64,000 bases of DNA, from contig WUUP01000001.1 in NCBI GenBank assembly GCA_009833045.1, forward strand, positions 49,440 to 113,439. The letters run 5' to 3'. Made by a program: the position numbers and the translations under genes. Below, piece by piece: positions 13,944-63,256 of the stretch (within the stretch, counting starts at the first letter, position 1; every line of letters starts with the position of its first letter). The notes beneath the pieces are model-generated. The model had not been told where the DNA came from and did not search any database. It worked only from the letters and a program-made list of their open reading frames with translations. Source of the DNA: Saprospirales bacterium GYS_P2D (lineage in GTDB: Bacteria > Bacteroidota > Bacteroidia > Chitinophagales > Saprospiraceae).

Positions 13944-13966
13944 ATTGATTTGATTTAGATTTTGGT

Positions 13967-14434: not shown

Positions 14435-15043
14435 TTAGACTGTTATTTTTTTGACCACAGAGAGTCTATCGTGGACATCAAGCTTTGAGAATATCCGCTT
14501 GACGTGAGTTTTGATAGTATTCACAGAGACATAGTGTCGCTCTGCGATCTGCCGATTGTTGAGTCCATCGACGATATCCATTAGCACATCGTATTCTTTC
14601 TCACTCAGAGGTGAGTGAGCGTAGCTATTGACATAGTCGATACTTAGTTCTTTCTGCTTGAGATCACTGGTATGATTGAATATTGCAGTCTCTATGGTAG
14701 TCATCAGATCTCTATCCTTGAATGGCTTGACAAGATAGCCCCTGGGTCGAGTGACTTTAGCTCGTGAGAGTGTATCCCGATCGCTCAGAGAGCTGAGATA
14801 GACGAATGGTATTTGGTATTTTTCATTGATGATCTCAGCGACCTCTATACCATCTCGAGTCCCTCGGATATTGATATCAAGGAGTACCATATCTGGCCGC
14901 CCTCTATAGATAGCATCCAGCGCCGACTCACTATCATAACAGATACCTGCCACGTCGTATCCGAGATCTATGAGTACATCATGGAGATCCTCTGCGATGA
15001 GTACCTCGTCCTCTACGATGAGGATTTTATAGTTATCACTCAT
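14435..15043 (-). CDS. two-component response regulator, REC + LuxR-type HTH
   Basis: start moved to ATG at 15043 (MSDNYKILIVEDE), 8-nt overlap with the kinase stop; C-terminal LSEKEYDVL..NRQIAERHYVSVNTIKTHVKRIFSKL HTH. Confidence 0.8.
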   Translation of the reverse strand: MSDNYKILIVEDEVLIAEDLHDVLIDLGYDVAGICYDSESALDAIYRGRPDMVLLDINIRGTRDGIEVAEIINEKYQIPFVYLSSLSDRDTLSRAKVTRPRGYLVKPFKDRDLMTTIETAIFNHTSDLKQKELSIDYVNSYAHSPLSEKEYDVLMDIVDGLNNRQIAERHYVSVNTIKTHVKRIFSKLDVHDRLSVVKKITV

Positions 15044-36353: not shown

Positions 36354-38270
36354 ATGAGCTTGATCGATAATCGGATGGAGAGAAAAAATCACTTCTCAAG
36401 AGGAATTTTACTGGCATTTATGACATTGCTAAGCACGATGCTCACAGCCCAAAAAGTCATCCCAGGAGAATGGATCATCAAATCTACAGATCCTACTTTC
36501 GGCGCCAAGGCAAAAAAGAATAGCCAAATATCTGAAGTGAAATCAATATTTGGAGAATTGGGTCTATATCTCATCGTGACTTCTGAAGAAAGGCCTATAA
36601 ATCAGATCAAGAAGAGCCTCAAATCCACTCAAATAGATGGTGCCTACCCAAATCAACTTATCGAGCCTCGCTATACACCTGACGACCCTGATTTCCCCGG
36701 ACAGTGGGCTGCCACTCAGATAGGCATGCCTGAAATATGGGACGTCACTACAGGAGGTCAGGCGCCCAATGGTGACGATATCGTGGTCGCCATATTTGAC
36801 GATGGATATGACATCACTCATCGAGACTATGCCGACAATATTTGGACCAATGAAGGAGAGATACCTGACGATGGCATAGACAATGACGGCAATGGCTACA
36901 TAGATGACTATCTCGGTTGGAATGCCACTACCGACAATGACGAACATAGAAATCGTACCCATGGCACTGCCGTAGCAGGCATCATCGGCGCTGTCGGGGA
37001 TAATGGTGTCTTAGTAGCTGGGATGAACTGGGACGTAAAACTCATGCTCACCAGCGGAGGTAGAGAAGCAGGATTTAACATAGCGGATATCGTCAGAGCC
37101 TATGAGTATATCTATACTCAGCGCAGAATATACAATGAGACACAGGGCGAATCTGGTGCATATGTCGTCGTATCTAATTATTCTGGAGGCGCTTCGGGAT
37201 TATTTCCTGAGGATTTTCCAAGTTGGTGTGAGATCTATGATTTATTAGGATCAGTGGGAGTGATCAATTTCACCTCGGCCCCTAATGCGGATGTCGATGT
37301 AGACACCGAGGGGGATCTCCCCTCTACCTGCCTATCCGACTATCTGATCATCGTCACCAATACAGACCGACAAGATAATAAGGTACAAGCTGCAGGCTAT
37401 GGTGCACAGAGTGTAGATCTGGGTGCTCCAGGTGATGAGATCTATACCACCGGTCTCAATGGAGAGCTCAATACTTCATTTAGCGGTGCGTCAGCCTCTG
37501 CTCCTGTGGTCGCTGGTGTTGCATCTCTACTCTATAGTGTCATCTGTGATGAAGCATATGAGCTGTCTATCACAGATCCCAGGAGTATCGTCCTCGAGCT
37601 ACGTCGTACATTATTGACCACTGTGAGTCCTGTACCAGAGCTCATAGGTAGATCTACGACTGGAGGTCGCCTCGATGCGGCAGCTGCTTTCGCAGAATGG
37701 CGTAGTATCAAAGGTATCGCTGACTGCTGTAAAGTAGACATCAGTGATCTCACTATCATTGATGAATCCTGCATAGAGGCTACTGACGGTCAGCTAAACA
37801 TTATGACGGATACTACTGATACCCGTAGTGCTCTGAGCTATACACTCTCTCCTATGTCCGGCATGAGTGTATCTAATCGAACCGGTGAATTTAGGTTTCT
37901 GGAAGCCGGAAACTATGAACTAAGCGTGACGACCGATCGTGACATGACCTGTCGGGCAGATACTACATTAAGTATAGCTGCGGGCATTGACGAGTGTAGC
38001 TTTGGAGAGTTTCAGATCAGCGGGATACTGCCTAATCCTACATCGGACTTCATCAATGTCAGTTTCGAGCTTGACGAGTTAAAGCATTTTGAAATTGTCA
38101 TTTTTGACTATGCGAGTCGATTGATCTATCGCAAACCCATCATACCAAGCAGCACCTCAGCTCGATCAGAGCAGATAGATGTATCCGATTTCCCAGATGG
38201 CATCTACTATATCGGCATACGAGCGAATGATTTAGTTGATTTCGTCCCCTTCTCCGTATTTCACCCTTAG
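36354..38270 (+). CDS. subtilisin-like serine peptidase (S8) with T9SS C-terminal sorting domain
   Basis: 638 aa; catalytic triad contexts AIFDDGYD (Asp), HGTAVAGIIGA (His), GASASAPVVAGVASLL (Ser); C-terminal ILPNPTSDFINVSFEL...GIYYIGIRAND CTD. Confidence 0.8.
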   Translation: MSLIDNRMERKNHFSRGILLAFMTLLSTMLTAQKVIPGEWIIKSTDPTFGAKAKKNSQISEVKSIFGELGLYLIVTSEERPINQIKKSLKSTQIDGAYPNQLIEPRYTPDDPDFPGQWAATQIGMPEIWDVTTGGQAPNGDDIVVAIFDDGYDITHRDYADNIWTNEGEIPDDGIDNDGNGYIDDYLGWNATTDNDEHRNRTHGTAVAGIIGAVGDNGVLVAGMNWDVKLMLTSGGREAGFNIADIVRAYEYIYTQRRIYNETQGESGAYVVVSNYSGGASGLFPEDFPSWCEIYDLLGSVGVINFTSAPNADVDVDTEGDLPSTCLSDYLIIVTNTDRQDNKVQAAGYGAQSVDLGAPGDEIYTTGLNGELNTSFSGASASAPVVAGVASLLYSVICDEAYELSITDPRSIVLELRRTLLTTVSPVPELIGRSTTGGRLDAAAAFAEWRSIKGIADCCKVDISDLTIIDESCIEATDGQLNIMTDTTDTRSALSYTLSPMSGMSVSNRTGEFRFLEAGNYELSVTTDRDMTCRADTTLSIAAGIDECSFGEFQISGILPNPTSDFINVSFELDELKHFEIVIFDYASRLIYRKPIIPSSTSARSEQIDVSDFPDGIYYIGIRANDLVDFVPFSVFHP

Positions 38271-48758: not shown

Positions 48759-48902
48759 AATTCTTTTTCAAAAATGGCCCGCAAAAGTACAGTATTTAAG
48801 ATATTCCCGTTTGAATAATATTACTCATAGCCCCACCGATCCGTAGACTTTTTGCTCCGAAAGAAATAGAATACATATGTTTGTTATATAAAGAAATCGA
48901 GA

Positions 48903-50744
48903 GTGCTTAAATTTTTATCCAATAATCCATATTTCAATGCTATTCGCAATATCAAGTCCGTCTTGGACCCCGATCAAAAGCGGAGATCTATTGGAATGAT
49001 CGGACTCATGCTCCTCAATGCATTCTTTGACGTACTCAGCATGGTAGTCGTGCTCGGTATGATCACTACTGCTCTCAAAGGTGGAGCGATCACTCGAGAA
49101 AGCTATACTCGAGCTGATGCATCGAATATGGGCGAGTATATCTTCAATTCGATTTTGAGATTCTTTTACCAAATCACTGGTGCAGAGTCAGAGATCGGAC
49201 TTTTGTTTTTCCTTTCCTTTTTGATATTTCTGACATTCATGGTCAAGAATGCTGTGTCGCTCTACATCAACTATATTCAAAATAGATTTGCTTATAACAT
49301 CTCACTCCGGCTCAACAAGAAGATGTTCAGGAGATACTATGACCAAGGATATTTATTCATCCAAGACAGCACCTCAGGAAAGAATGTATACAAGATCGTA
49401 GATATCCCAATGAGATTTGCTCAGCAATATCTCATGCAAGCTTTCTTTTTCAGCACAGAATTAGTGGTAATAGCCATCCTATGTATTGGATTATTCTTTT
49501 ATAAACCTGGAGCGATCCTGTTGTTAATGGCCGTAATAGCACCCGTGTTTTTAGGGATATACTCCTACAGCAAAAATAAAATCAAAGATATAGGTTACGA
49601 GCGGAACAAACTCCTACCCATCAATTACTCAAAGGTCATAGAGGCTATGAAAGGATATGTGGATATTAAGCTATCCAATAAAGAATCTAAATCTCTCGAT
49701 AGATACGTCGAAAGCCAAAAGTATCTGAACTCTGTAGACACCTATTATTTTGGCGTTTATAACAAGATCCACCAAAAGACCAATGATATCATTTTCGGAC
49801 TTGGCATATTTGTGATTTTCGGTTATGCATATTTCACTGGCATGACCAAAGAAACCGTTCTTTTACTGCTGGGGTTCTTTGCCATTGCAGCCTATAAAAT
49901 ACTGCCTGCAGTAAATAGAATGATGAATTCAATTTTGGGCATAAAAAATCACTCATATGTCATAGATGAGCTACAAGAGGTGGTGGGTATGTCCTTAGAA
50001 GAATTTGAGACCTACCCTCAGCTTGATTTCCATGAGCATATAAAGCTCAAGGATGTATCCTTTACATATCCAGAATCTCGTCAAATCGTACTTGATAAGA
50101 TAAACCTGAGTATCAATCGGGGTGAAAGTATAGGTATTATCGGCGAGTCTGGGTCTGGAAAATCTACCTTGCTTAAAATCCTTTTGCGATTAATTAGAGA
50201 ATCTTCTGGCGAGTTTAGGGTAGATGATAATACTCTTTTGAATCTGAATGACGATTCCTCATTTCAAAAAAATATAGGTTACGTAGCTCAAGATATATTT
50301 ATACTGAATGGTACACTCAGAGAGAATATCGCTTTTGGCGAAGTAGAAGTTGATGCTGAACGCCTCGAATATGCTATTCGTGAATCTCAGTTGGCAAAAT
50401 TTGTCTCTGAGCAAGAACTCGGCCTGGATATGCATCTTGGCGAAGGCGGAGTAAAACTAAGTGGAGGCCAAAAACAAAGAGTAGGCATAGCTCGAGCGCT
50501 GTATAAGAACGCTGAGATTTTAGTATTTGATGAAGTAACGAGTGCTCTTGATCCAGAGACTGAAAAAGCAATCGTGGAGAGCATCAATCACATAGCGACT
50601 TTAGGCAAAACGATCATCATCGTAGCGCATCGAATCACAACACTCGAAAAGTGTGATCGTATCATAGAGTTGGAGCATGGCAAGATTGTCAGAGAGCCGA
50701 AGTATTCGGAATTAATAAAAGAATTAGTGGAAATAAATGGCTAA
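48903..50744 (+). CDS. fused ABC exporter (6-TM domain + NBD), candidate glycan/lipid-linked oligosaccharide flippase
   Basis: 613 aa; Walker [10 protein letters not shown], signature [15 protein letters not shown], Walker B ILVFDE; stop overlaps the gmd start. Confidence 0.8.
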
Positions 50745-51852
50745 GAAGGCATTAATAACGGGTGTAACAGGACAGGACGGAGCCTATTTATCAGAATTGC
50801 TGCTAAGTAAAGGCTACGAAGTCCATGGTATCAAAAGAAGAAGTTCATTGTTCAATACAGGACGAATAGATCATCTCTATCAAGATCCTCATGAGTCAGA
50901 AATTAGATTTAAACTGCATTATGGGGATCTGACGGACTCATCTAACATCATCAGAATCATCCAAGAAGTGAAGCCTGACGAGATATATAATCTTGGTGCA
51001 ATGTCCCATGTCAAAGTCAGCTTTGATAGTCCAGAATATACCGCAGACGTTGACGGCCTGGGCACTCTGAGGATACTGGAAGCCGTGAGATTATTAGGCT
51101 TGAGCCAAAAGACAAAAATCTATCAAGCCTCTACTTCAGAGCTATATGGATTAGTCCAAGCAGTCCCTCAGTCAGAGACTACTCCGTTTTATCCACGCTC
51201 GCCATACGGTGTAGCCAAACTCTATGCCTACTGGATTACTGTCAACTATCGTGAAGCATATGACATGTATGCTTGTAATGGTATTCTATTCAATCATGAG
51301 AGCCCACTCAGGGGAGAAACCTTTGTGACCCGTAAAATCACCCGAGCTGTAGCCAAAATTGCGCTGGGACTACAGGACACCGTATATCTTGGCAATCTCG
51401 ACGCTAAGAGAGACTGGGGACATGCGAAAGATTATGTCAGAGGTATGTGGCTCATGCTCCAACAAGAAAGGGCTGTAGACTATGTCCTCTCTACAGGTAC
51501 TACTACCACTATCCGAGACTTTTGCATTAAGGCTTTCAGGGAAATAGGAGTTGAATTGAAATTCGAAGGAAAAGGTGAGGATGAAATAGCTAAAGTCGCC
51601 AAATCTACTAATCAAGAATATCCTGTAGAAATCGGTCAAACAGTCATCGCTGTAGATCCTAACTACTATCGTCCCACGGAGGTGGATCTACTCATAGGTG
51701 ATAGCACCAAAGCTAAAATTGAACTGGGCTGGGAGCCAGAGTACGATCTCGATGCATTGATCAATGAAATGGTACTATCCGATCTTGAACTCTTCACCAA
51801 AGACAAACTCCTCAAAGATCACGGATTTGAAATAAAAAGAGAACATGAATAA
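50737..51852 (+). CDS. gmd: GDP-mannose 4,6-dehydratase
   Basis: 371 aa; [20 protein letters not shown], YxxxK SDR motif. Confidence 0.9.
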
Positions 51853-52786
51853 GAGTGACAAAATATACATCGCAGGACACCGAGGAATGGTCGGTTCTGC
51901 CATCCGTAGAAAATTAGAATCCTTGGGCTACGACAATCTGATTTTTAAGACCAGTTCAGAGTTGGACTTAAGAGATCAAAACTCAGTTAAAGAGTTCTTT
52001 GAGGAAGAAAAACCCTATTATGTATTTGTCGCATCAGCCAAAGTCGGTGGCATTCACGCAAATAATACGTATCGGGCTGACTTTCTGTATGACAACTTGA
52101 TGATACAAAATAATATCATCCATCAGAGCCACAAGCATGGTGTCAAAAAACTACTCTTTTTAGGATCGTCATGTATATATCCTAAGCTCGCTCCGCAGCC
52201 TATCAAAGAAGAGCACCTACTCACTGGTCTCCTCGAACCGACCAATGAACCATATGCCATCGCTAAAATATCAGGCATCAAGATGTGTGAAGCATATAGA
52301 GATCAGTATGGTTGCAACTTCATATCGGCTATGCCTACTAATCTATATGGACCGAATGACAACTATGATCTGAAGAATAGTCATGTTCTACCTGCACTGC
52401 TTCGAAAATTCATAGAGGCAAAGAGGGACAAGCAAGAAGAAGTGGTGATGTGGGGAACAGGCTCACCACTCAGAGAATTTATGCATGTTGATGATCTAGC
52501 AGACGCATTGATCTATCTCATGGAGCACTATGATGAAAGAGAATTTGTGAATGTAGGTAGCGGCGAAGAGATCAGTATAAAAGAACTCGCTGAAACTATC
52601 AAAAAAGTAGTGGGATACGAAGGAAAAATAACAAACGACCTATCAAAGCCAGATGGTACGCCAAGAAAACTAATGGATAGTACCAGACTGAAAAATCATG
52701 GCTGGACAGCTAAAATCAATCTGGAGGATGGAATCCGAATGGTTTATGACGATATAAAAGATAAAGATTGGAGCATGAATCTATAG
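51845..52786 (+). CDS. fcl: GDP-L-fucose synthase (GDP-4-keto-6-deoxymannose 3,5-epimerase/4-reductase)
   Basis: 313 aa; [15 protein letters not shown] Rossmann, SDR YAIAK. Confidence 0.85.
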
Positions 52787-54066
52787 CAAAAAGTAATAGT
52801 CCTATAATAGCCATCATTGGTTTAGGCTATGTAGGATTACCTCTGAGCATAGCTCTATCAGAGCACTATAGTGTTATCGGATTTGATATTAATTCTACTC
52901 GTATCGAATCATTGCATCGTCATATCGATCTCAATAGAGAAATACCTACATCTATTCTCCAATCATCAAAAATCCAGTTTACAAATAATAAAGAGGATCT
53001 TAAAAAGGCCAATATCTATATAATAGCTGTGCCTACTGATATTGATGCAGATGACAGTCCTGACCTTTCGTATCTGATCAAAGCCAGCGAGATGGTAGGA
53101 GGATTAATTTCTCATGGGGATATAGTCATCTATGAATCGACCGTATATCCTGGGTGTACAGAGGAAGTTTGTCTGCCCATTTTAGAAGAGTTATCCGGAT
53201 TAAAGTCTCCGATTGAATTTAGCATTTCATACTCTCCTGAGCGGATAGTACCAGGCGAGCTAATGGAAAGCTTAAAATCCTCAATCAAAATAATAGGATC
53301 TCAAAATGACGCCACTTCTCTAAGTGTAAAATCAATCTACGATTCTTTCTTATATCATGAAGCTCAAATCGTATCGAGCATTATGGTAGCAGAAGCCGCA
53401 AAAGTGGTCGAGAATACTCAGCGTGACATTAATATCTCATTGATCAATGAGCTATCCGTGATATTTGATAAGATCGGAATATCCACCCATGAAGTCATAG
53501 AGGCGGCAAGTACTAAATGGAATTTTCATCCATACTCTCCGGGCTTAGTGGGAGGACATTGTATCAGTGTGGATCCTTTTTATCTGATACACAAGGCTAA
53601 AAAGGTAGGACATCTACCACAGGTCATCGCTGCTGGACGGAGAGTCAATGAATATATCCCGAAGCACATAGCTACTAAAGTCACTCAAGAGCTAATCAAG
53701 CAGGGAAAAAATCCTGGAAACACAAAGGTCCTAGTCATGGGATTAGCATTCAAAGAGAACGTCAGTGATATCAGGAATAGCAAAGTGATAGATCTCATGA
53801 ACTATCTAAATGACTATTCTATCTGCATCGATACGCTCGATCCACATGTAGCAAGCTATCAAAATAGTCGAAATCACTATGCGCAGATCTCCGATATTAG
53901 GGCTGAATATGATGCCATCATATTGTGTGTAGCTCATGATGAGTTTAAAGACTTGAGTGAACAATGGTTTGAAAAGGTCAGTATAGGTGCCACCACTCTC
54001 TTTGATGTCAAAGGAATATACCGGAAACAGCTTACCGATGAATCCATCAAATACTGGACACTGTGA
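52768..54066 (+). CDS. UDP-N-acetyl-D-glucosamine 6-dehydrogenase-like nucleotide-sugar dehydrogenase (WbpA-like)
   Basis: 432 aa; [12 protein letters not shown] Rossmann, catalytic Cys region GGHCISVDP. Confidence 0.8.
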
Positions 54067-55157
54067 TAGTCAAAATGGCATATCTCGATCGTGAATACCA
54101 ATCTATCAAAGGCGAAATAGATAAAGCTTGGGAGGTAACTGTGCGGAATGGTCAATTTATCGGAGGCGATGCAGTGAACGCCTTTGAATCACAATTGTCA
54201 AAGTACCTATCAGATTCTTACATCGTGAGCTGTGCCAATGGCACAGATGCCTTATTGGCAGCATATTTAGCACTTGACATCAATGCAGGAGACGAAGTCA
54301 TTATGCCAGCATATGGCTATATATCTGCCTATGAGATGTGTAAATTAATCGGTGCGATACCGGTACTTGTAGACATTAATGATTACTACCTCATTGATGT
54401 CAAACAAATCGAAAATAAAATCTCCTCAAAAACTAAAGCTATAGTTGTTCAACACTTGTTTGGACAAGTAGCCAATATGGATCCAATACTTGAGCTAAGA
54501 AATAGGTATAGTATTAAGATAATCGAAGACACTGCACAGTCCATCGGGAGTAATTATCGATGGAAAATGGCTGGCACCATTGGTGATATTGGCACTCTTT
54601 CTTTTTTCCCAACCAAGAATTTAGGGTGCTATGGCGACGGCGGAGCTATCATCACGAATTCGCAAGAAATGGTGGCAAGCTTATCGCAAATCTGCAAGCA
54701 TGGGCAATCAAAAAAATATAACCATGAAAGAATAGGAATGAACAGTCGTCTGGATACGCTGCAAGCCAGTATTCTTTCTGCAAAGCTGCCGCATTTATCA
54801 AAATGGAACGCTCGAAGAACGTCAATTGCTCAAATCTATTCCGAGTCATTCGCCTCGCTGGAGAATATCGCTACGCCATCCATAGCGACCGACTCTACAC
54901 ATACCTATCATCAATATACCATAAAGACCCAGCAAAGAGATCAGCTACAGGCTTATCTCAAAAAGCGAGGTATACAATCTACCATATACTACCCCAAGCC
55001 CATTCATGAGCAAAGAATTCACCAACCTGAAGGCAGCTATCCGATGAGCGAAAGAATGGCCTGCGAATCATTGTCGTTGCCTATATCACCATTTTTAAAG
55101 TATGAAGAAATAGAGATGGTAATTAAATCAATAGTAAACTGGTCAAGAAATGAATGA
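54063..55157 (+). CDS. DegT/DnrJ/EryC1/StrS-family PLP-dependent sugar aminotransferase (WbpE-like)
   Basis: 364 aa; family-typical architecture incl. SFFPTKNLG Lys region. Confidence 0.8.
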   Translation: MIVKMAYLDREYQSIKGEIDKAWEVTVRNGQFIGGDAVNAFESQLSKYLSDSYIVSCANGTDALLAAYLALDINAGDEVIMPAYGYISAYEMCKLIGAIPVLVDINDYYLIDVKQIENKISSKTKAIVVQHLFGQVANMDPILELRNRYSIKIIEDTAQSIGSNYRWKMAGTIGDIGTLSFFPTKNLGCYGDGGAIITNSQEMVASLSQICKHGQSKKYNHERIGMNSRLDTLQASILSAKLPHLSKWNARRTSIAQIYSESFASLENIATPSIATDSTHTYHQYTIKTQQRDQLQAYLKKRGIQSTIYYPKPIHEQRIHQPEGSYPMSERMACESLSLPISPFLKYEEIEMVIKSIVNWSRNE

Positions 55158-55632
55158 TTACTACGTACATGAGTCAAGTATCATTGATGAGGGAGCAATC
55201 ATAGGTACAGGCACTAAAATTTGGCATTATTGCCATGTTTCCTCAACTGCAACGATCGGAAAGAATTGTGTTCTGGGTCAAAATGTATATATAGGCCCCA
55301 ATGTGGTCATAGGAAATGGAGTGAAAATCCAAAACAACGTTTCCGTATATGACGGTGTGACTATAGAAGACGATGTATTTATCGGTCCATCTGTAGTGTT
55401 CACTAATGTTATGCTTCCTCGAGCAAACAAGAATCAAAAAGACTGTTTCCAGCCTACTTTAATTAAAAATGGAGCAAGTATCGGCGCCAATACTACCATA
55501 ATATGTGGTAATACTATAGGAAGTGATAGCTTCATAGGTGCTGGCAGCGTAGTCACCAAGGACATCCTCGCTGGAGAAATCTGGTATGGTAATCCCGCCG
55601 TATATCAAGGCAAAGTAGATCAATCGAGATAG
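55150..55632 (+). CDS. hexapeptide-repeat sugar N-acetyltransferase (WbpD-like)
   Basis: 160 aa; left-handed beta-helix hexapeptide repeats. Confidence 0.7.
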   Translation: MNDYYVHESSIIDEGAIIGTGTKIWHYCHVSSTATIGKNCVLGQNVYIGPNVVIGNGVKIQNNVSVYDGVTIEDDVFIGPSVVFTNVMLPRANKNQKDCFQPTLIKNGASIGANTTIICGNTIGSDSFIGAGSVVTKDILAGEIWYGNPAVYQGKVDQSR

Positions 55633-55660
55633 TTTGAATACATATTAGTATTATTGTGAT

Positions 55661-56455
55661 ATGAAAACCTACGCCTTGATAGGAGCTGCAGGCTATATAG
55701 CGCCGAGACATATGGCGGCGATCCGTGATACCGGAGGGCGCTTAGTAGCTGCATTAGATCCGCATGACAGCGTAGGTATTTTAGACAGCTACTTCCCGAA
55801 GTGCGATTTTTTCACAGAATTTGAGCGTTTTGATCGACATCTTGACAAGCTCCGTAGAAAGGGAGAAAAAGTAGACTATCTGGTCATCTGCTCTCCTAAC
55901 TACCTACATGATGCTCACTGCCGATATGGCCTGCGCAATGATATGGACGTCATCTGCGAAAAGCCGCTTGTCATCAATGAGTGGAACGAAGCACCACTGA
56001 GAGCACTAGAAAAAGAAACGGGACGAAAAATCAATGTGGTCATGCAGCTCCGCCTACATCAAGCTGTCAAAACGCTAAAAGAGCAAGTAGACACTGACCC
56101 ACCAGATAAAATATACGATGTCCAACTCACATATCATACTCCACGAGGCAACTGGTATCACCATAGCTGGAAGGGAGATATCAGCAAAAGTGGAGGCATC
56201 AAGCTAAATATCGGCATTCACTTTTTTGACATTTTGGAATGGATATTTGGCAAGAAAAAGAAAGAAGAAATATTTTTAGAAAATAATATCACAGCTCGAG
56301 GAAAATCGATCTACCAAAGAGCCAGCGTAAAATGGGATCTATCTATCGATCAAAATTTGACTAAGCAGAGGTCATTAACCGTTGATGGTGAGGAGGTAAA
56401 TTTTACTGAGGGATTTGAGGATCTGCATCGGGTGTGGTATGAGAAACATCTATAA
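55661..56455 (+). CDS. Gfo/Idh/MocA-family oxidoreductase (WbpB-like)
   Basis: 264 aa; N-terminal Rossmann YALIGAAGYIAPRH, EKP motif. Confidence 0.75.
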   Translation: MKTYALIGAAGYIAPRHMAAIRDTGGRLVAALDPHDSVGILDSYFPKCDFFTEFERFDRHLDKLRRKGEKVDYLVICSPNYLHDAHCRYGLRNDMDVICEKPLVINEWNEAPLRALEKETGRKINVVMQLRLHQAVKTLKEQVDTDPPDKIYDVQLTYHTPRGNWYHHSWKGDISKSGGIKLNIGIHFFDILEWIFGKKKKEEIFLENNITARGKSIYQRASVKWDLSIDQNLTKQRSLTVDGEEVNFTEGFEDLHRVWYEKHL

Positions 56456-56456
56456 A

Positions 56457-57212
56457 ATGTGGGAAAGATTACACAAATTTATATTGAGAAAACTAAATTA
56501 CGCTAATACCGATTTTGACTCTAATGGAGAGAATTGGTTATTACAAAGTCTACATAAATTGAGTAGCGATCCCCTCACGATATTTGATGTTGGGGCAAAT
56601 AAGGGTGATTACACTTTTTTATGCAATAGATCACTAACCATCCGCAATATTCCACATCAGATCTTTGCCTTCGAACCAAATAACGACAACTACGTCAAAT
56701 TGGTTGATAGATTTTCTGGCAATAAAGCAATACAAATTGAAAAGTATGGCATAGGAGAAAAAACAACAGAATCTGAATTAATCATTCCTTTAGAACGCAA
56801 TTCACTCGCCTCAATATTTTCTAGAGATATAGAGCATTTCAAATCGGACAATATTAGAATTGATAAAATTATGATCGAGTCAATCGACAACTTTATGAGT
56901 AACAACAGAATTCATAAAATAGATTTTTTAAAAATTGATATAGAAGGAAACGAATTATCCGCTATAAAAGGTGCTACAAAGGCATTAGATAATAAAAGAA
57001 TATCACTCATTCAATTCGAATTCGGTGGGACGATGATAGACTCAAGAACATTTTTCAGAGATATTTTTGATTTCTTAAATTCTAAGGGATATCGTCTTGG
57101 AAGATTAATGAAAAATAGAATTTATTGGTATGATAACTATTCTGAGATTTATGAACAATTTACATATGCTAACTATGTAGCATTACCTCAAAAATCACAC
57201 ATCACACTTTAA
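56457..57212 (+). CDS. FkbM-family methyltransferase
   Basis: 252 aa from ATG at 56457 (MWERL), 1 nt after the upstream TAA; DVGANKGD and KIDIEGNE motifs; the ORF track extends it to 56415. Confidence 0.6.
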   Translation: MWERLHKFILRKLNYANTDFDSNGENWLLQSLHKLSSDPLTIFDVGANKGDYTFLCNRSLTIRNIPHQIFAFEPNNDNYVKLVDRFSGNKAIQIEKYGIGEKTTESELIIPLERNSLASIFSRDIEHFKSDNIRIDKIMIESIDNFMSNNRIHKIDFLKIDIEGNELSAIKGATKALDNKRISLIQFEFGGTMIDSRTFFRDIFDFLNSKGYRLGRLMKNRIYWYDNYSEIYEQFTYANYVALPQKSHITL

Positions 57213-57221
57213 ACTTTCATC

Positions 57222-57968
57222 ATGCTAATTTCACTAACCCATCTCTTAACTAAATATGATCTAAACCCTCAAGGAATACTCCATCTAGGAGCACATATTG
57301 GGCAAGAAACCAAAGTTTATCAAGAAAACAATATTCACAACGTAATTTGGATTGAAGGTAATGAAAAGGTCTACAAAAAGCTTATTAGCAATCTCAATAA
57401 GGTTAAAGGAAACAAGTTCTACAATATTCTAATTTCGGATATTGACAATGTAGAATTAGAATATCACCTCACCAATAATGAAGAATCAAGTTCAATTCTT
57501 GAGCTTAAAGACCATAAAATATTCCATCCTAAAGTAATTCATACTGAAACAATACTTCAAAAAGCGAGGAGGTTAGATATTTATTTCAAAGAGAATCAAA
57601 TTGATATTTCATCATTTGATTTTTTAAATATTGATCTTCAAGGGGCCGAACTTATTGCGTTAGAAAGTCTTGGAGAATACCTTAGTAATTTCAAATACAT
57701 ATATCTCGAAGTAAATACCGGTTCACTTTATAAAGACTGCCCGAAACTATCTTTCATAGATAAATACTTAGGTGAGAAAGGTTTTATAAGAAAAGTAATG
57801 AAACTAACCAAACATGGATGGGGTGATGCGTTTTATATTAAAGAGGATTTTGATCATTCTACCCTATTATACAATGTCGCCGAAGCAAAAAAGCAAGAGA
57901 GGTATTTTAAGTACAAAAAATTACTTGCTCAAGTTAAAGCACCTATTAAAAGACTTTTCTCCAATTAA
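57222..57968 (+). CDS. FkbM-family methyltransferase (second copy)
   Basis: 248 aa; LGAHIGQET, NIDLQGAELIALES. Confidence 0.55.
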   Translation: MLISLTHLLTKYDLNPQGILHLGAHIGQETKVYQENNIHNVIWIEGNEKVYKKLISNLNKVKGNKFYNILISDIDNVELEYHLTNNEESSSILELKDHKIFHPKVIHTETILQKARRLDIYFKENQIDISSFDFLNIDLQGAELIALESLGEYLSNFKYIYLEVNTGSLYKDCPKLSFIDKYLGEKGFIRKVMKLTKHGWGDAFYIKEDFDHSTLLYNVAEAKKQERYFKYKKLLAQVKAPIKRLFSN

Positions 57969-57970
57969 AT

Positions 57971-58828
57971 CTAAAGTTTAATCCAACTATTTAAAATCAA
58001 ATTTTCCTCGTCCAAATTATCTTTCCAATTTATTGGAGCGATTATATGAGCATTGCAATTTGAATTCAAAAAAGCTGCCCACCAACTAAAAGTACTATTC
58101 GCTATAATATTGTGATCACATCTTGACATTAATGCCATATCCCTCCAATCTGATCCACTAGACTCATCAGAACTTACTAACGTATAATTAATATTCCATT
58201 TAGCAAAAAACTCATTCGACCATTTTGGATCATCCGAAAAAATAAAGTAATGAACATCTTTATAATTCGATTCAAAGAAATTAATAGCTTTTTTATAATA
58301 CGATATTGACAGCACTTTAAAACCACTGTCGTATGTCATGTTTAAATAATCTCCTCTCCTAACATGAATACTGACACTAACTTTTGATTTTTTTATCTCC
58401 GACAACCAATTTATGTCTTCATACTTCCTTGCAATGTTAAACTTAAATAATCCGAACAATTCATTTTTATATGGAACGAAGTATTTCTTATCATTCCAAT
58501 ATCCCCTCATATATACATTTCCAAATCTGTTTAAGATTTTGAAAAGTGAGGATTCTGGACTTTTGTCCGTATATTGATATTTCTCATTCCAAAATGGCGC
58601 AATTCGCTTCAACTTACCATGAAATGGTTGATATTGAAACAATTCAATCATAGTCATTTCATTCAATGGAATTCCAAAATACTGGAGTGACAATTCTCTA
58701 TTGGTATTCCGATTAGTATCTCTGAAAATGTACTTCACTTCATGTCCCGTTTTTAGAGAAATTATGTATGCAAATGCATACTGAAACATTTGATTTCCCA
58801 GTCCTCCCTTCAATTCAATAAATATCAC
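57971..58828 (-). CDS. alpha-1,2-fucosyltransferase, glycosyltransferase family 11
   Basis: 285 aa; N-terminal LKGGLGNQMFQYAFAY and the GT11 hallmark HVRRGDY. Confidence 0.85.
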   Translation of the reverse strand: MIFIELKGGLGNQMFQYAFAYIISLKTGHEVKYIFRDTNRNTNRELSLQYFGIPLNEMTMIELFQYQPFHGKLKRIAPFWNEKYQYTDKSPESSLFKILNRFGNVYMRGYWNDKKYFVPYKNELFGLFKFNIARKYEDINWLSEIKKSKVSVSIHVRRGDYLNMTYDSGFKVLSISYYKKAINFFESNYKDVHYFIFSDDPKWSNEFFAKWNINYTLVSSDESSGSDWRDMALMSRCDHNIIANSTFSWWAAFLNSNCNAHIIAPINWKDNLDEENLILNSWIKL

Positions 58829-58877
58829 TTTTGATTTTCCAATTTATAATTTGAGAAAATTTTAATTAGACTCAAGC

Positions 58878-59528
58878 CTATTCGATTTTAGAATAAATAT
58901 CACCAAATTTAGAAGCTTCAAACTCGACTGAATCGATAAGCCCTAATAACTCTTTTCTAGTTACCCATGACTCTAGTGCCCATTCCATAGATTCTTGAAT
59001 GGAATAATTAAATGAAACACTTTTATCGCCAGAAATCTTTCCTATTCTATCAATGCATGCAACAATATTCTGTTTACCCTCAGGGATCGCAAATTCAAAT
59101 GATTTATACTTTATTGGATGAGATAAGCCTCTGAGTACTTCCAACTCAAAACCTTCGACATCTATCTTAATATATAATGGCATACCAATTTCTTCTATTA
59201 TACTGTCTAAAGTCACAATTTCAATAGTTTCCTTTCTGCTCCATTTATAATTCTTAAACCTTCCACTTTTCTTTATATCTGTTATCCATTGTTCATTAAA
59301 ACTACTTAACGTACTAACATTAGATATAAACATGGTTTTTGTCTCATTTTTAAGACCTACTCCTTTAGGTATTACTATTATTCTCTTACCGAAAACATCA
59401 TTTAACAATTCATAACATCTTTTTTGGGGTTCAATTGCTACTATCTTCCGTACATCATTCAGTATTGGAAAAATTCTATTCCCCATATTTGTGCCAACAT
59501 TAAAAAAAAATATCATTTGGAGAATCAA
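58878..59528 (-). CDS. FkbM-family methyltransferase (third copy)
   Basis: 216 aa; NVGTNMGN and IKIDVEGFELEVLRG. Confidence 0.55.
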   Translation of the reverse strand: MILQMIFFFNVGTNMGNRIFPILNDVRKIVAIEPQKRCYELLNDVFGKRIIVIPKGVGLKNETKTMFISNVSTLSSFNEQWITDIKKSGRFKNYKWSRKETIEIVTLDSIIEEIGMPLYIKIDVEGFELEVLRGLSHPIKYKSFEFAIPEGKQNIVACIDRIGKISGDKSVSFNYSIQESMEWALESWVTRKELLGLIDSVEFEASKFGDIYSKIE

Positions 59529-59630
59529 AAAACTGTAGCATAAATTGTCTTCTTTTTAAATATTTTTTTATCTTTAAAGTTCTTATGCCAAAATTTGACG
59601 ATATTATAAATCCTTTCCCCTTCAATTTTT

Positions 59631-60476
59631 TTAAACATTTTTAATTATTTTTTTTGAAATGTCCTCGATCCGTTTTTTAGTGAATATTATTGATTCATAG
59701 GGGAGCATCTCAACAGGAACACTTTTTAATAGATCAGAAAAAGAGTATTTGTCTTCCCTTAATCTAGATAATCTGAAATTGGCATATTGAATTTGAATGT
59801 CTGACATCATATAGCGATGCTTTTTTAAACAATAATTGTATCCTTTTAGCATATTTTCTGAATTTGTAATTCTTCCAGAATTATGCAAATCATCAATATA
59901 AATTAGCCTTTTATTCAATATATAGGAAGGTCCGTAATTTTTAATTAGACGTATCCATAGATCATAATCTTGTGCAGCCAGTAAATTGGAATCCCACATT
60001 CCTACTTCTTTCACTTTTACAGTTTCCGTAAAAATTGAATTCCCTACTTTATTAGATGTTAGAATTCTATTTAGATCTATTTTTTTAGGTCTGAACATGA
60101 CGCCGTTTATGCCTCCAGATAACTTCGAAGACATAGAACTTACAAAACTGACGGACGATTTAATCCCAAGATAAAAATACAATAAAAGTTCAACTCTTTT
60201 GTGATGGAAGTAATCATCATCATCCAAATTCATATAATACTTTCCCTTAGTCAATTCTAAGCCTCTATTTCTTGAATGCTGAGCTCCAATATTTTGGCTA
60301 TTCTTGTATACCTCTAATCGTCTATCATTGAACTGAGAATAATGACTAAGATCTGCCATAGGATCATCAATGATCACTATTAATTGTATATTTTTGTATG
60401 TCTGATTTAATACAGATGTAATAGCCCTATTCAAAAGCTTTTCTCGTTTATAACTGGTTATAACTACACTTACCAT
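59631..60476 (-). CDS. glycosyltransferase family 2
   Basis: 281 aa; VSVVITSYKREKLLNRAITSVLNQTY and DDD. Confidence 0.75.
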   Translation of the reverse strand: MVSVVITSYKREKLLNRAITSVLNQTYKNIQLIVIIDDPMADLSHYSQFNDRRLEVYKNSQNIGAQHSRNRGLELTKGKYYMNLDDDDYFHHKRVELLLYFYLGIKSSVSFVSSMSSKLSGGINGVMFRPKKIDLNRILTSNKVGNSIFTETVKVKEVGMWDSNLLAAQDYDLWIRLIKNYGPSYILNKRLIYIDDLHNSGRITNSENMLKGYNYCLKKHRYMMSDIQIQYANFRLSRLREDKYSFSDLLKSVPVEMLPYESIIFTKKRIEDISKKIIKNV

Positions 60477-60503
60477 TTATGATAATCTATTCAAATTTAA
60501 ACA

Positions 60504-61397
60504 ATGCTAATATCATTTATAATTTTAACATATAACCGATCATATGAGACTTACGAGGCAATTAAAAATATCATTTATCATTTGAATAAGCCTAGTGGCA
60601 TCATATATGAAATAATCATTTTCAATAATAATTCAACGGCTGATTATTCTGATCTGGAAGACTATATAGCTAAATTTCCATTTGTCAAATACATTAAAAA
60701 CGAGAAAAATGAGGGTGTAGCAATTGGGCGAAATAAGGCTTTTTCATATGCTCAAGGTGAAATATGTATATCCTTGGATGATGATGCTGAATTCATCGAG
60801 GAAAATATCATAGAAAAAACGTTAAAATTATTCGCCGAGTATAAACAAAGTAAAGTTGCCTTACTAACTTATAAAGTGGTAGAAAGAAGTGATGGTAGCA
60901 TTGATATAGCAAGTAAAAATAAAGATGACTTAAAAAAAGATCAATTTTACACTACGTACTTTAAAGGAGGAGCACATGCTGTAATAAAATCCGTTTTTGA
61001 CGAATTAGGAGGATACACGACTACAGGATTATATGGAGCTGAAGAATACGATTTAGCCTATAGAATATTGGATAAAGGATACAGAATCCTACATACTTCG
61101 GATATCAGCATCCTACACAAAAAAGCAGCTTCTGGGAGACAAAACTACCCAGATCAACTGGGCAATCTTTTACTTAATAAAAGTATTATAGCTTATAGAT
61201 TCTTACCATTTCGGTATTTCATAAGTCATCTTTTTATGTGGTCAGGATTCTTTATCATGAAAACAAATGGTAATATTTGGGCATTGTTAAAGTATGTATT
61301 TCAGGCAATTAAAACTGTCATTTCTACTGATCGTCAACCAATTTCTAAGAGTACCATCCAATATATACAGAACATAGGAGGTAGGGTATCTTATTAA
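60504..61397 (+). CDS. glycosyltransferase family 2
   Basis: 297 aa; ISFIILTYNR..., SLDDDAEF. Confidence 0.75.
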   Translation: MLISFIILTYNRSYETYEAIKNIIYHLNKPSGIIYEIIIFNNNSTADYSDLEDYIAKFPFVKYIKNEKNEGVAIGRNKAFSYAQGEICISLDDDAEFIEENIIEKTLKLFAEYKQSKVALLTYKVVERSDGSIDIASKNKDDLKKDQFYTTYFKGGAHAVIKSVFDELGGYTTTGLYGAEEYDLAYRILDKGYRILHTSDISILHKKAASGRQNYPDQLGNLLLNKSIIAYRFLPFRYFISHLFMWSGFFIMKTNGNIWALLKYVFQAIKTVISTDRQPISKSTIQYIQNIGGRVSY

Positions 61398-62173
61398 TTC
61401 GATACAATATAATATCCACAAGTAGTATAAAAATTTCGAATAAACCTGATTGTTGAAAATATTTTGGGTACTTTCTTCGGAAGCAAGCCGAACTTAATTT
61501 CATAATTTGGATTAAATACATACAAATCTCTTTTGCTAATGGCTAACTCACTCGTTTTGAGGTGCCTTTCAAATGTTTCTAAACTGAGACCAGTTTCTCT
61601 AATTTCCATTCGTGATTCAATTGTCGATTCAGGCACATTAGCTAATTTCATCAGTCCTACATAAAGCACTTTTGGCAACAAATGAATATATGGTAACTTA
61701 GACACCCATCCCTTCAAAACCTGTTGATGTCCGCCAAATGGCATATGCCATGGCGGGAATCCAAAAAATATAATACCATCGGGTTTGAGAAAGGATTTGA
61801 TGTACTTCATGAATTTCTCTTGATCGGGAATATGCTCTATCACATCACGGAGAAAAATGACATCAAATATCCCGACACTTTCGATTGAGACTTTATAAAT
61901 ATCTTCCAAAATCAAATCAACTTGATTATATCCATCAGCAGCGAGATACGATCGAGCTCGACCTAATTGACTCTCATTTATATCTACTCCTATCACCTCG
62001 CATCCCATCTTGAGAAATGGTAAAAGATTACCTCCCTCTCCACATCCGACCTCCAATACTCGCATATCAGAAGTAATCATCTTAACATCATTGATAAATG
62101 GAATTACATACTTCTCGGTAGTATAGGCTTGCTCCTCGTAGTATCGTCGTCTGTCTTTGTGGCGTTCTTGCAT
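61394..62173 (-). CDS. class I SAM-dependent methyltransferase
   Basis: 259 aa; motif I VLEVGCGEGGNL. Confidence 0.7.
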   Translation of the reverse strand: MQERHKDRRRYYEEQAYTTEKYVIPFINDVKMITSDMRVLEVGCGEGGNLLPFLKMGCEVIGVDINESQLGRARSYLAADGYNQVDLILEDIYKVSIESVGIFDVIFLRDVIEHIPDQEKFMKYIKSFLKPDGIIFFGFPPWHMPFGGHQQVLKGWVSKLPYIHLLPKVLYVGLMKLANVPESTIESRMEIRETGLSLETFERHLKTSELAISKRDLYVFNPNYEIKFGLLPKKVPKIFSTIRFIRNFYTTCGYYIVSN

Positions 62174-62236: not shown

Positions 62237-63256
62237 ATGAAATACAGCTTTATCATACCGACCTATAATAGACTGAATGAACTACAGGAATTAATACCCT
62301 CTATTAATGAGCTAAATTATAACAAAGCTAATTTCGAATTAATCATAGTGGATGACGGATCTACAGATGATACTGAAAGTTATATAAGAAGCTTATCACT
62401 CTCCTTTGAGTTAAAATACCATCAACAAGCAAATCAGGGACCAGGTGCTGCCAGAAATAAAGGGATGTCACTGGCAGAGGGGGAATACTTCTTGTTTGTA
62501 GATTCAGATTGTATCCTACCAGCAGATTACTTATACCAAATGGATTTAGCTTTAAACGCAAATGATCTTGATGCATTCGGTGGCCCTGATACTTTTCACC
62601 CTTCCTTTTCTCCACTACTTAAAGCTATTAACTACTCCATGACGTCATTCTTAGGTACAGGGGGCACACGTGGTAGCACCAAGAGTATAGCGAAGTATTA
62701 TCCACGTAGTTTTAATATGGGTATAAAAAGAGAAGTCTTTGATCGTATTGGAGGATTTGGCGACCTTAGACATGGACAGGATATGGATTATTCGGCAAGA
62801 ATTTATGCCGCTGACTTCAAGGTCGGGTTTGTAGAAGAGGCATATGTATATCACAAAAGAAGAACCAGCTTTTGGAAATTCTTCAAACAAATACACAACT
62901 GGGGCGTCACTCGGATAAATCTCGCAGCAATGCATCCTGATATGCTAAAACCCATACATCTTTTACCAGCTATGATAGTACTAATCGGATGTATCATCAT
63001 GGCTCTGTCTATATTTCTGCCATTAGCAAGACTACTGCTTATAATAGGTCTGGGTGGCATGATGCTCATATCCGCTATGGCATTTTTTCAGTCCTATAGA
63101 ACCTATAAATCTCTCAATGTTGCCTTATTATCCATATTCACTCTCATAGTACAGGTGGGTGCATATGGTATAGGTTCACTTAATGGCATTTGGCAAAAAT
63201 GGATATTAAAGAAGCCTGTTGCTATAGGAATCACTAAAAATTACTACGGAAAGTAA
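62237..63256 (+). CDS. GT2 glycosyltransferase with C-terminal transmembrane helices (GtrB/DPM1-like polyprenyl-phosphate glycosyltransferase candidate)
   Basis: 339 aa; FIIPTYNR, IIVDDGSTDDT, FVDSDC, then 2-3 hydrophobic helices in the last about 100 aa. Confidence 0.65.
   Translation: MKYSFIIPTYNRLNELQELIPSINELNYNKANFELIIVDDGSTDDTESYIRSLSLSFELKYHQQANQGPGAARNKGMSLAEGEYFLFVDSDCILPADYLYQMDLALNANDLDAFGGPDTFHPSFSPLLKAINYSMTSFLGTGGTRGSTKSIAKYYPRSFNMGIKREVFDRIGGFGDLRHGQDMDYSARIYAADFKVGFVEEAYVYHKRRTSFWKFFKQIHNWGVTRINLAAMHPDMLKPIHLLPAMIVLIGCIIMALSIFLPLARLLLIIGLGGMMLISAMAFFQSYRTYKSLNVALLSIFTLIVQVGAYGIGSLNGIWQKWILKKPVAIGITKNYYGK

Follow-up and report, generated by a model that had tools for sequence, protein, structure and literature searches.

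Organization of the glycan island

The DNA analysed here is a 64,000-nucleotide stretch, called the window throughout, of the genome of Saprospirales bacterium GYS_P2D (contig WUUP01000001.1), and the subject is the group of glycan genes found at its right end, from position 48903 to beyond 64000. These genes probably make up a single surface-glycan island, located at a fixed chromosomal site of this Saprospiraceae (Bacteroidota) genome. The first gene encodes a fused ATP-binding cassette (ABC) exporter. Judged by its membrane domain, the protein is a relative of the PglK family, and neither a PglK orthologue nor MsbA; it is proposed as a candidate flippase of a lipid-linked glycan, and as the conserved left anchor of the island. 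The reading put forward, with a probability of about 0.7, is that a glycan assembled on a lipid carrier would be flipped whole by the ABC protein, in a flippase-dependent pathway. Three layers can likely be distinguished in the island, namely conserved machinery at the edges, a module providing sugar precursors, and a low-GC module specific to the genome.

Genes and features are listed in Table 1. NCBIfam equivalog cut-offs and Pfam gathering scores were used as thresholds for family assignment. Housekeeping genes (dapF, etfB, etfA, a gene with a nuclease domain, and lepA) are found upstream of the ABC gene. A preliminary description of the locus had listed ten genes, all of which were recovered at the positions shown by analysis of open reading frames (ORFs) and domain scans. 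Assignment of each enzyme by hidden Markov models, recommended there as a check, upheld the families. ABC, gmd and fcl form, as described, an operon of overlapping genes, the overlap being 8 nt at both the ABC/gmd and gmd/fcl junctions; further downstream the overlaps are of 4 nt (wbpA/wbpE) and 8 nt (wbpE/wbpD). Methyltransferases and a family 11 glycosyltransferase (GT11) had also been reported correctly. Two FkbM genes (PF05050) precede the GT11 gene, in the translation of which the sequence SIHVRRGDY, hosting the HxRRGD motif, can be read. The GT11 gene is assigned to the alpha-1,2-fucosyltransferase family, linkage and acceptor being putative. The ORF of the first FkbM methyltransferase opens at a TTG at 56415, and the likely start is the ATG at 56457. 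The end of the locus had been set at 58828. This boundary falls short, as the island runs to at least 64000, about 5 kb more, and includes a flank formed by a membrane-anchored family 2 glycosyltransferase (GT2), denominated GT2c, and a YfhO-family gene. Gene content past 64000 has been deduced from the loci of relatives. The start codons of the two divergent GT2 genes within the added part are 27 bp apart (60477-60503), which leaves very little space for two promoters. As a whole the enzyme inventory is ordinary, because GDP-fucose synthesis, the Wbp pathway, GT11 and FkbM enzymes are textbook parts of surface polysaccharide loci.

Related loci from other genomes or metagenomes are indicated below by L numbers, and individual homologous proteins by P numbers; L002 and L036 are the same locus. 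No Wzx, Wzy, Wzz, WaaL or initiating phosphoglycosyltransferase was found among the island genes or the other polytopic membrane ORFs of the window, as the preliminary description had maintained for Wzx, Wzy, Wzz and the initiating enzyme. The remaining polytopic membrane ORFs encode a fatty-acid hydroxylase, a nucleoside transporter, a signal peptidase and two small products with no Pfam match. Genes for outer-membrane export (Wza/OPX) or for a co-polymerase are missing from the window, L035 and L036. The organization typical of Wzm/Wzt, in which an ABC-2 permease and an ATPase are encoded by separate genes, was not found in the island, which has one fused gene and no second ABC gene.

Table 1. 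Genes and features of the glycan island (positions refer to the window)
Feature	Position	Strand	Evidence
Fused ABC exporter, PglK-family, 613 aa	48903..50744	+	ABC_tran Pfam E 2e-30, weak ABC_membrane match
gmd, GDP-mannose 4,6-dehydratase	50737..51852	+	TIGR01472, 576.8 bits vs cut-off 415
fcl, GDP-L-fucose synthase	51845..52786	+	NF047922, 502.4 bits, just over cut-off 500
UDP-N-acetylhexosamine 6-dehydrogenase, WbpA/TviB-like	52768..54066	+	three UDPG_MGDP_dh domains
Sugar 3-aminotransferase, WbpE-like	54063..55157	+	DegT Pfam E 4e-101; WbpE 3nyu E 2e-82
N-acetyltransferase, WbpD/WlbB-like	55150..55632	+	Hexapep; top solved match WlbB 3mqg E 9e-49
WbpB-like UDP-GlcNAcA 3-dehydrogenase, Gfo/Idh/MocA, C-terminally truncated, 264 aa	55661..56455	+	WbpB 3oa2 E 1e-77
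Low-GC block with tailoring and transferase genes	56450..61400		composition profile
FkbM methyltransferase 1	56457..57212	+	PF05050 E 3.7e-24
FkbM methyltransferase 2	57222..57968	+	PF05050 E 3.4e-14
GT11 fucosyltransferase (alpha-1,2-fucosyltransferase family)	57971..58828	-	PF01531, 101.6 bits vs cut-off 23.9; HVRRGDY motif
FkbM methyltransferase 3	58878..59528	-	PF05050 E 1.2e-10
GT2 glycosyltransferase, WcaA-like	59631..60476	-	PF00535 E 9.5e-20; WcaA model 98 bits, under cut-off
GT2 glycosyltransferase	60504..61397	+	PF00535 E 1e-18
Class I S-adenosylmethionine (SAM) methyltransferase, conserved right flank	61394..62173	-	Methyltransf_11/31
GT2c, membrane-anchored GT2, right anchor	62237..63256	+	PF00535 E 2.5e-27
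YfhO-family gene, C-terminal 247 codons, protein of about 820 aa	63258..64000	-	frame still open at window end

The ABC protein

Over its whole length, the ABC protein scores 271.4 bits with the NCBIfam MsbA model (TIGR02203, cut-off 602) and 250 bits with the HepA model (cut-off 725). The score with the PglK equivalog NF050066 is 230.9 bits against 1000, and the protein does not qualify as a PglK orthologue. Whole-protein scores of ABC exporters are dominated by the ATPase domain, and the membrane domain has been therefore tested alone. A profile of this domain (alignment A3) was obtained from ten family members. PglK ranked first with the profile (E 2.3e-12), and the match spans PglK residues 8-313, which correspond to the whole domain. 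TM288 came next with a partial match at 1.6e-7; the best MsbA gave 6.9e-5, and most MsbA proteins about 5e-3. PglK is accordingly five orders ahead of the next transporter.

The AlphaFold model of the protein (predicted local distance difference test, pLDDT, 89.3; predicted TM-score 0.83) features six long transmembrane (TM) helices followed by an ATPase domain, which is the layout of a half-transporter. In Foldseek searches the best TM-score was obtained with the outward-facing PglK structure 6hrc (0.81/0.88, 24% identity), a result taken as weak support only, and all the top matches are type IV exporters. An extra helix (residues 76-92) is modelled within the loop connecting TM1 (23-59) to TM2 (97-147), and its conserved LRxxYxxxG motif is aligned to the sequence LISLKEYLNIP of the PglK loop. 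Leaving aside membrane orientation, the helix sits in the model where PglK has its external helix, and may be its counterpart. The same periplasmic loop carries, in the dapF-linked Saprospiraceae clade, a 16-residue insertion (approximately residues 60-75 of the ABC protein), missing from PglK and from distant members of the family (L032-L034, L005).

The basic residues lining the PglK cavity are reportedly R86, R260, R302 and R309 (numbering of Perez et al. 2015). In the A3 alignment K115, invariant in the family of the window protein, is aligned to R86. The TM6 motif AAY[K/R]xLPSxN[R/K] is aligned to ALYRLMPSANR of PglK, with K331 (K or R in the family) corresponding to R302 and R337 (R or K) to R309; the conserved K292 (K or R) is two residues off R260. 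The basic band of the PglK cavity has thus counterparts at the positions of R86, R302 and R309. In PglK the band lines the outward-facing cavity and is the proposed binding site for the oligosaccharide lipid's pyrophosphate; band, external helix and mechanism are described in PMC4900756.

Upstream of the ABC gene, about 20 nt from its GTG start, the sequence TATGTTTG (48876-48883) fits TAnnTTTG, and is weak evidence, being a single short match. TAnnTTTG is the -7 promoter consensus of Bacteroidota, the promoters of which differ from the sigma-70 consensus.

Loci hosting related ABC genes

The gene order etfA-etfB-small TPR gene-dapF-ABC is conserved in L001, L002, L004, L030 and L032, where the ABC proteins are 49-75% identical to that of the window. 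The relatives of the ABC protein agree with a source of the window in Saprospiraceae (Bacteroidota). Glycan gene sets are headed by the ABC gene in eight of nine related loci, belonging to several lineages. The sets vary. In L001 the ABC gene is followed by genes of the legionaminic-acid type (NeuB, a 2-epimerase, a PglD-like acetyltransferase and nucleotidyltransferases), in L002 by genes for FkbM methyltransferases, GT8, WbsX, DUF5672 and GT2 proteins, in L003 and L004 by gmd-fcl. In L032 the trio ABC-gmd-fcl precedes an intact five-gene Wbp set, which includes a 314-aa WbpB and a WbpI-like epimerase. L033 and L034 lie outside the dapF context. The former hosts a full-length wbpB, the ABC gene, an AsnB-type amidotransferase, epimerases and a methyltransferase. 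The latter features divergently transcribed gmd and fcl genes, then a Wzc-like gene, the ABC gene, a 2-epimerase and a FemAB-like acyltransferase, and continues with transferases, a Wzy_C protein, a GT4 and AsnB; the ABC gene is thus located between the Wzc-like and the Wzy_C genes, and no Wzx was found among the called genes of the locus. As far as these loci indicate, the ABC gene is in relatives the fixed head of islands whose sugar genes differ from genome to genome.

The islands of L035 and L036 terminate, as in the window, with GT2c and a YfhO-like protein of 819-829 aa. Both are complete, and contain no Wzx, Wzy, Wzz, ligase or initiating transferase. In L036 the YfhO gene is followed by lipA, a further gene, a gene for a DUF7033 protein resembling VimE, and housekeeping genes; lipA, itself a housekeeping gene, follows the GT2c-YfhO flank in both L035 and L036. 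A second fused ABC exporter is encoded in L035 just beyond YfhO (13745-15460). It scores 354 bits with TIGR02203 and 385 bits with the SmdA model, both under the cut-offs, and is more similar to MsbA/SmdA than the ABC protein of the island. Neither the island in the window nor L035 or L036 hosts a Wzx/Wzy set beside which the ABC protein could be taken for an unrelated MsbA-like exporter, the situation that the preliminary description had indicated as adverse to its proposal.

In L037 and L040 clusters of the same YfhO/GT2c type are found, but the ABC protein is replaced there by a Wzx-like protein, which has 11 membrane helices. The genes found in these loci beside or between YfhO and GT2c encode GT4s, a C5-epimerase-like protein and AsnB-type amidotransferases. 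L040 hosts also a WbpB-like oxidoreductase, and its Polysacc_synt and YfhO matches both exceed the Pfam cut-offs. The use of Wzx in some lineages and of the ABC family in Saprospiraceae by the same type of cluster is expected if both carry out the flipping step. The association with glycan synthesis is also physical, since P0094, a 996-aa homologue of the same ABC family, is fused to a GT4 domain. The preliminary description had favoured a fused PglK-type exporter over a split Wzm/Wzt pair, a choice reinforced by the membrane-domain profile, by the top TM-score and by the glycan sets headed by the gene in eight of nine loci.

Sugar precursors and the low-GC block

GDP-fucose is a secure precursor. 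Gmd and Fcl both exceed the NCBIfam equivalog cut-offs and account for the whole de novo pathway to GDP-L-fucose, as anticipated.

The four genes downstream encode all the enzyme classes of the Wbp pathway recognized in the preliminary description. The family of the WbpA-like 6-dehydrogenase (52768-54066) is certain, as the protein scores 367 bits with the subfamily model of NDP-sugar dehydrogenases TIGR03026 (cut-off 190). Its substrate is suggested by the best NCBIfam match, the UDP-GlcNAc 6-dehydrogenase TviB, which is itself under the cut-off (389 bits vs 592). The 3-aminotransferase and 3-N-acetyltransferase of the Wbp/Wlb pathway are represented by WbpE-like and WbpD/WlbB-like proteins; the top solved match of the aminotransferase (54063-55157) is another aminotransferase, 7b0d, and not WbpE. 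If intact, a set of WbpA/E/D/B-like enzymes would yield UDP-GlcNAc3NAcA. Two features of the set had escaped the preliminary description: WbpB is truncated to 264 aa, and wbpI is missing.

The top solved matches of the WbpB homologue are WbpB 3oa2 and 3o9z (E 1e-77). The alignment covers residues 3-274 of the 318 of Pseudomonas aeruginosa WbpB 3oa2, and residues 5-274 of the 314-aa L032 homologue, at which point the window protein ends. Full-length proteins measure approximately 314-321 aa, and 40-odd C-terminal residues are gone in the window (40 by the L032 alignment, 45 by that with P0244). Homologues were searched among 1.84 billion representative proteins, and the best 150 were considered: those whose alignment extends to the last residues of the window protein (257 or later in the query) all run 20-69 residues further. 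The closest is 57% identical and 321 aa long. Searches with the L032 proteins revealed no remnant of the wbpB tail and no WbpI 2-epimerase, entire or residual, in the window, and no Epimerase_2 domain was detected in the scanned island genes.

The TAA stop codon of wbpB (56453-56455) is separated by 1 nt from the ATG of the methyltransferase gene. Exactly where wbpB is truncated the GC content drops from 0.44 to about 0.30, and stays low up to about 61.4 kb, for approximately 5 kb. The block is about 30% GC, against 40-44% in the left flank and 36-40% in the right flank. No long flanking repeats and no ends of mobile elements or insertion sequences were found at its edges. The simplest reading is that the block of transferase and methyltransferase genes arrived by recombination, clipping wbpB and removing wbpI, because wbpB is truncated at the 3' end, the GC content falls at the same point, and wbpI is absent.

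In Porphyromonas gingivalis a WbpB shortened by 83 residues at the C-terminus was considered non-functional, and A-LPS was abolished (PMC4031482). As wbpB is truncated, the branch leading to the 2,3-diacetamido (diNAc) uronic acid may be impaired in the window as well. WbpI is missing, and the uronic product, if made, would therefore be a gluco and not a manno sugar. Truncated wbpB is a reminder that inventories of enzyme classes can overstate the actual product of a locus.

The right flank

The SAM methyltransferase at 61394-62173 is 55% identical to the gene product adjoining GT2c in both L035 and L038, and 49% identical to that in L046. GT2c is highly conserved. Statements on homologues of GT2c and YfhO are based on the best 120 matches for each. 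All the 119 other GT2c matches are 55-72% identical, and the mean column identity of the alignment is 62%. The AlphaFold model (pLDDT 89.1) comprises a GT-A domain, an amphipathic helix and three C-terminal TM helices. Over the full length the fold is matched best by 6yv7, a membrane mannosyltransferase from archaea, and the other sequence and fold matches are generic GT2/GT-A proteins. The best NCBIfam matches are EpsD and MftF, both under the cut-offs. GT2c is a candidate core or initiating transferase. Its identification as a polyprenyl-phosphate sugar synthase of the GtrB/CsbB type was considered and is not established, the match to GtrB 5ekp being confined to the N-terminus (E 5e-4).

The YfhO fragment is 67% identical to the 819-aa protein of L035 and 59% identical to the 829-aa protein of L036. 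By itself it scores 27.7 bits with PF09586, the cut-off of which is 28.5. The L036 orthologue carries PF09586, the L040 homologue scores 44.4 bits, and the domain is present in all but a handful of the homologues, which include proteins of Saprospiraceae, Bacteroidales, Alistipes and Hanamia named by NCBI as YfhO family members. On these grounds the fragment is assigned to the YfhO family (PF09586, GT-C type). Full-length relatives have about 12 membrane helices. In 12 related loci the YfhO-like proteins have retained, like GT-C enzymes, an Asp within the loop that follows TM1, and share invariant GH..K and H.Q..Y motifs.

The linkage of the two genes was monitored by running the GT2c alignment against metagenome contigs, and counting loci with at least 7 kb on both sides. 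Where GT2c identity is at least 44%, a YfhO-like gene is found within 10 kb of GT2c in seven of ten such loci, at distances of 0.17-7.9 kb, and glycan genes stand between the two in the loci inspected for this (L037, L040). Below 44% identity almost no loci have a nearby YfhO; our guess is that these are mostly from Bacteroidales.

Close to GT2c and YfhO two distant genomes encode a DUF7033 protein similar to the P. gingivalis deacetylase VimE (L036 15514-16794, L037 10998-12272). The match to the VimE model NF053580 (E 4e-44) is under the cut-off. In the genome analysed here the corresponding gene would lie just past the end of the window.

Proposed flipping and fate of the glycan

A pathway compatible with the gene content can be outlined. 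GDP-fucose, and UDP-GlcNAc3NAcA if WbpB still works, would be the sugars supplied. On the cytoplasmic face soluble GT11 and GT2 enzymes and methyltransferases would build a short, O-methylated and fucosylated glycan on polyprenyl phosphate, the chain being started by an initiating enzyme encoded elsewhere, or by GT2c. Once finished, the lipid-linked glycan would be flipped as a unit by the ABC protein, whose basic band, equivalent to PglK R86, R302 and R309, would hold the head group. An enzyme facing the periplasm would then move the glycan to its acceptor. This would be the core of lipopolysaccharide (LPS), if the enzyme is a WaaL ligase encoded elsewhere, or a protein, if it is the YfhO-type enzyme next door. 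Since a polymerase is missing, as are a chain-length regulator and an exporter for the outer membrane, a short glycan is favoured and a capsule disfavoured. The preliminary description had envisaged a fucosylated, acidic glycan made on a lipid carrier and flipped by the ABC protein. Its lipid-linked, fucosylated and flipped nature is favoured here too; the diNAc-uronic branch may be impaired.

Some observations weigh against the flippase pathway. The ABC protein is far under every NCBIfam equivalog cut-off, and its membrane domain, used as a single sequence, retrieved no solved relative at E up to 0.01. By Foldseek E-values, PglK, MsbA and TM287/288 cannot be told apart. No recognized oligosaccharyltransferase or ligase is encoded in the window, which lacks also an intact WbpB/WlbA 3-dehydrogenase. 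In L030, the exception among the related loci, only three genes follow the ABC gene and no obvious glycan set is present; two of them have no Pfam or NCBIfam match, and the third has a precomputed GH113 match only.

Within the flippase pathway, the LPS and the protein acceptor are about equally likely. One possibility, to be held tentatively, is that the product is an O-antigen or outer LPS glycan, which a WaaL encoded elsewhere would join to lipid A-core, according to the Helicobacter pylori route. In H. pylori a fucosylated O-antigen is flipped by Wzk, a PglK homologue (PMC2841628), and a fixed site with contents varying among genomes is typical of O-antigen loci. By extension, the Wbp product could feed an A-LPS-like polymer anchoring the cargo of type IX secretion (T9SS), as in Porphyromonas. 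Both A-LPS and the T9SS linking sugar of P. gingivalis need the Wbp pathway (PMC4031482, PMC7468200). A protease with a T9SS C-terminal domain is encoded in the window, and the VimE-like DUF7033 genes found near YfhO and GT2c in L036 and L037 fit the same scheme. The protease is a subtilase (Peptidase_S8, 36354-38270, + strand) carrying a Por_Secre_tail sorting domain; it is in keeping with a Bacteroidota host, and possibly bears on the use of Wbp sugars in cargo anchoring. Against an LPS acceptor, neither the window nor the complete L035 and L036 islands encode WaaL/Wzy_C, Wzz or an initiating transferase, wbpB is truncated, and the presence of YfhO and GT2c at the flank of such islands in several lineages is left unexplained.

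A second reading, doubtful when taken alone, is that the island is the species-specific outer-glycan locus of the general protein O-glycosylation system of Bacteroidota, in which the ABC protein replaces Wzx and YfhO is the oligosaccharyltransferase. The oligosaccharyltransferase of this system has escaped identification for more than 15 years, and a preprint of July 2026, relying solely on sequence analysis, puts YfhO forward as the missing O-oligosaccharyltransferase of the phylum (10.64898/2026.07.27.740950). The window fragment belongs to that family. The Asp conserved in the first loop, the frequent location of YfhO within 10 kb of GT2c (7/10 loci), and islands featuring 3-5 transferases, several methyltransferases and no polymerase, as suits a short glycan, all agree with a protein acceptor. 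The linkage observed in the window would be an independent support, because linkage was no part of the argument of the preprint. It is rather unlikely, though worth stating in full, that the Saprospiraceae island is a compact O-glycosylation unit, in which the ABC protein has displaced Wzx, GT2c adds the core or first sugar, YfhO acts as oligosaccharyltransferase, and the genome-specific genes in the middle, in the window those for fucose, methyl groups and diNAc-uronic acid, determine the outer glycan. Against protein as acceptor, the role of YfhO as oligosaccharyltransferase is a prediction, the window fragment taken alone is just under the Pfam cut-off, and Bacteroidales YfhO genes are not adjacent to glycan loci. 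P. gingivalis O-glycosylates its proteins. The species has no YfhO, however (10.64898/2026.07.27.740950), and characterized YfhO enzymes add single sugars to teichoic acids (PMC5836110).

Export of a finished polymer, capsule or exopolysaccharide, in the manner proposed for fused exporters of the HepA or ExsA type, rather than flipping of a short lipid-linked glycan, is improbable. The HepA model scores about like the MsbA and PglK models, and in L034 the ABC homologue lies beside a gene for a Wzc-like co-polymerase. However, HepA is far under its 725-bit cut-off, the membrane domain is closest to PglK, and Wza/OPX and co-polymerase genes are missing, as said, from window, L035 and L036.

The idea that the ABC gene is an unrelated housekeeping exporter, of MsbA or multidrug type, merely lying beside a variable island is very improbable, and the glycan-headed pattern of the related loci counts against it: a core syntenic gene adjoining dapF in five relatives, an L030 locus almost devoid of recognizable glycan genes after it, and the best NCBIfam score obtained with MsbA (271 bits) could be so explained, but this score is less than half of the cut-off, the membrane-domain profile favours PglK (2.3e-12) over the best MsbA (6.9e-5), glycan genes are headed by homologues also where dapF is not the neighbour (L033, L034, L035), the gene overlaps gmd by 8 nt, a GT4 fusion exists (P0094), and L035 has a separate and better MsbA/SmdA-like ABC gene (TIGR02203, 354 bits).

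Flippases of the PglK kind are known in N-glycosylation (Campylobacter) and in O-antigen synthesis (Helicobacter); here such a protein would be encoded by the fixed head gene of islands of a Bacteroidota family, in the place that Wzx takes in clusters otherwise alike. In the literature searched we found no description of a PglK-like flippase in a Bacteroidota glycan locus, and nothing relevant on Saprospiraceae O-antigen loci. The interest of the island resides mainly in the linkage of flippase and YfhO, which offers a concrete genetic test of YfhO as oligosaccharyltransferase. Should the island serve O-glycosylation, the linkage would be independent genomic evidence for the identity of the oligosaccharyltransferase, and Saprospiraceae would be a lineage where flippase, transferases and oligosaccharyltransferase can be deleted together. 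Should the glycan be bound to LPS, the linkage would instead be a caution against the proposal.

Other features of the window

Collagen triple-helix repeats make up nearly the whole of a 1552-aa ORF at 26259-30917 on the - strand (Pfam Collagen, E 3.6e-199). Because of this ORF the local GC content rises to 55-59%, with a strong AT skew, in a window otherwise at about 42% GC. The ORF at 3930-5246 (+ strand) encodes a fusion of a PIN domain to a PhoH-like ATPase, unrelated to the glycan island.

Comparison with known systems

The pair at the right flank recalls the three-component systems of the CsbB/YfhO and GtrB type, which combine a GT2 synthase of polyprenyl-phosphate sugars with a GT-C transferase. 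In the window a GT2 of about 340 aa with C-terminal TM helices is found beside a YfhO-family protein. In Firmicutes, glycosylation of lipoteichoic acid requires YfhO (PMC5836110). In contrast, GT2c is only marginally similar to GtrB, and the Gram-negative host has no teichoic acids.

The loci for protein O-glycosylation of Bacteroidota (lfg type) combine, like the island, species-specific transferases with one flippase. Fucose and methyl chemistry are typical of Bacteroidota O-glycans. The flippase is Wzx in lfg-type loci, an ABC protein in the window.

The four enzyme classes of the Wbp/Wlb pathway, known from P. aeruginosa (WbpA/B/E/D/I) and Bordetella pertussis (WlbA-D), are all present and adjacent in the window. 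The Wbp/Vim case of P. gingivalis and Tannerella forsythia is close for another reason, the host being similarly a Bacteroidota species endowed with type IX secretion. The window diverges from these systems because WbpB is deprived of 40-odd C-terminal residues, and WbpI, WbpS, VimA and VimE are not encoded in it.

The window and H. pylori both combine GDP-fucose supply with a fucosyltransferase of the GT11 family, to which H. pylori FutC belongs. In the H. pylori pathway (WecA, Wzk, WaaL), which leads to fucosylated Lewis antigens, a PglK homologue replaces Wzx in the transport of a fucosylated surface glycan (PMC2841628), as proposed here for the ABC protein. H. pylori genes are scattered on the chromosome (PMC2841628), whereas those of the window form one island, with no WecA or WaaL in the window.

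Campylobacter jejuni PglK (WlaB), the flippase of the lipid-linked oligosaccharide used in N-glycosylation, is the closest term of comparison for the ABC protein, in spite of the different phylum. The two proteins are approximately 24% identical, two of the aligned arginines are lysines in the window protein, the TM1-TM2 loop of the window protein carries the 16-residue insertion, and PglB or other pgl genes are not found nearby. Yet both are half-transporters with a membrane domain followed by an ATPase domain, encoded within a glycan operon. PglK is also the best solved relative of the membrane domain, and the two share the counterparts of R86, R302 and R309, the TM6 motif YRLxPSxNR, and possibly the extra helix in the TM1-TM2 loop.

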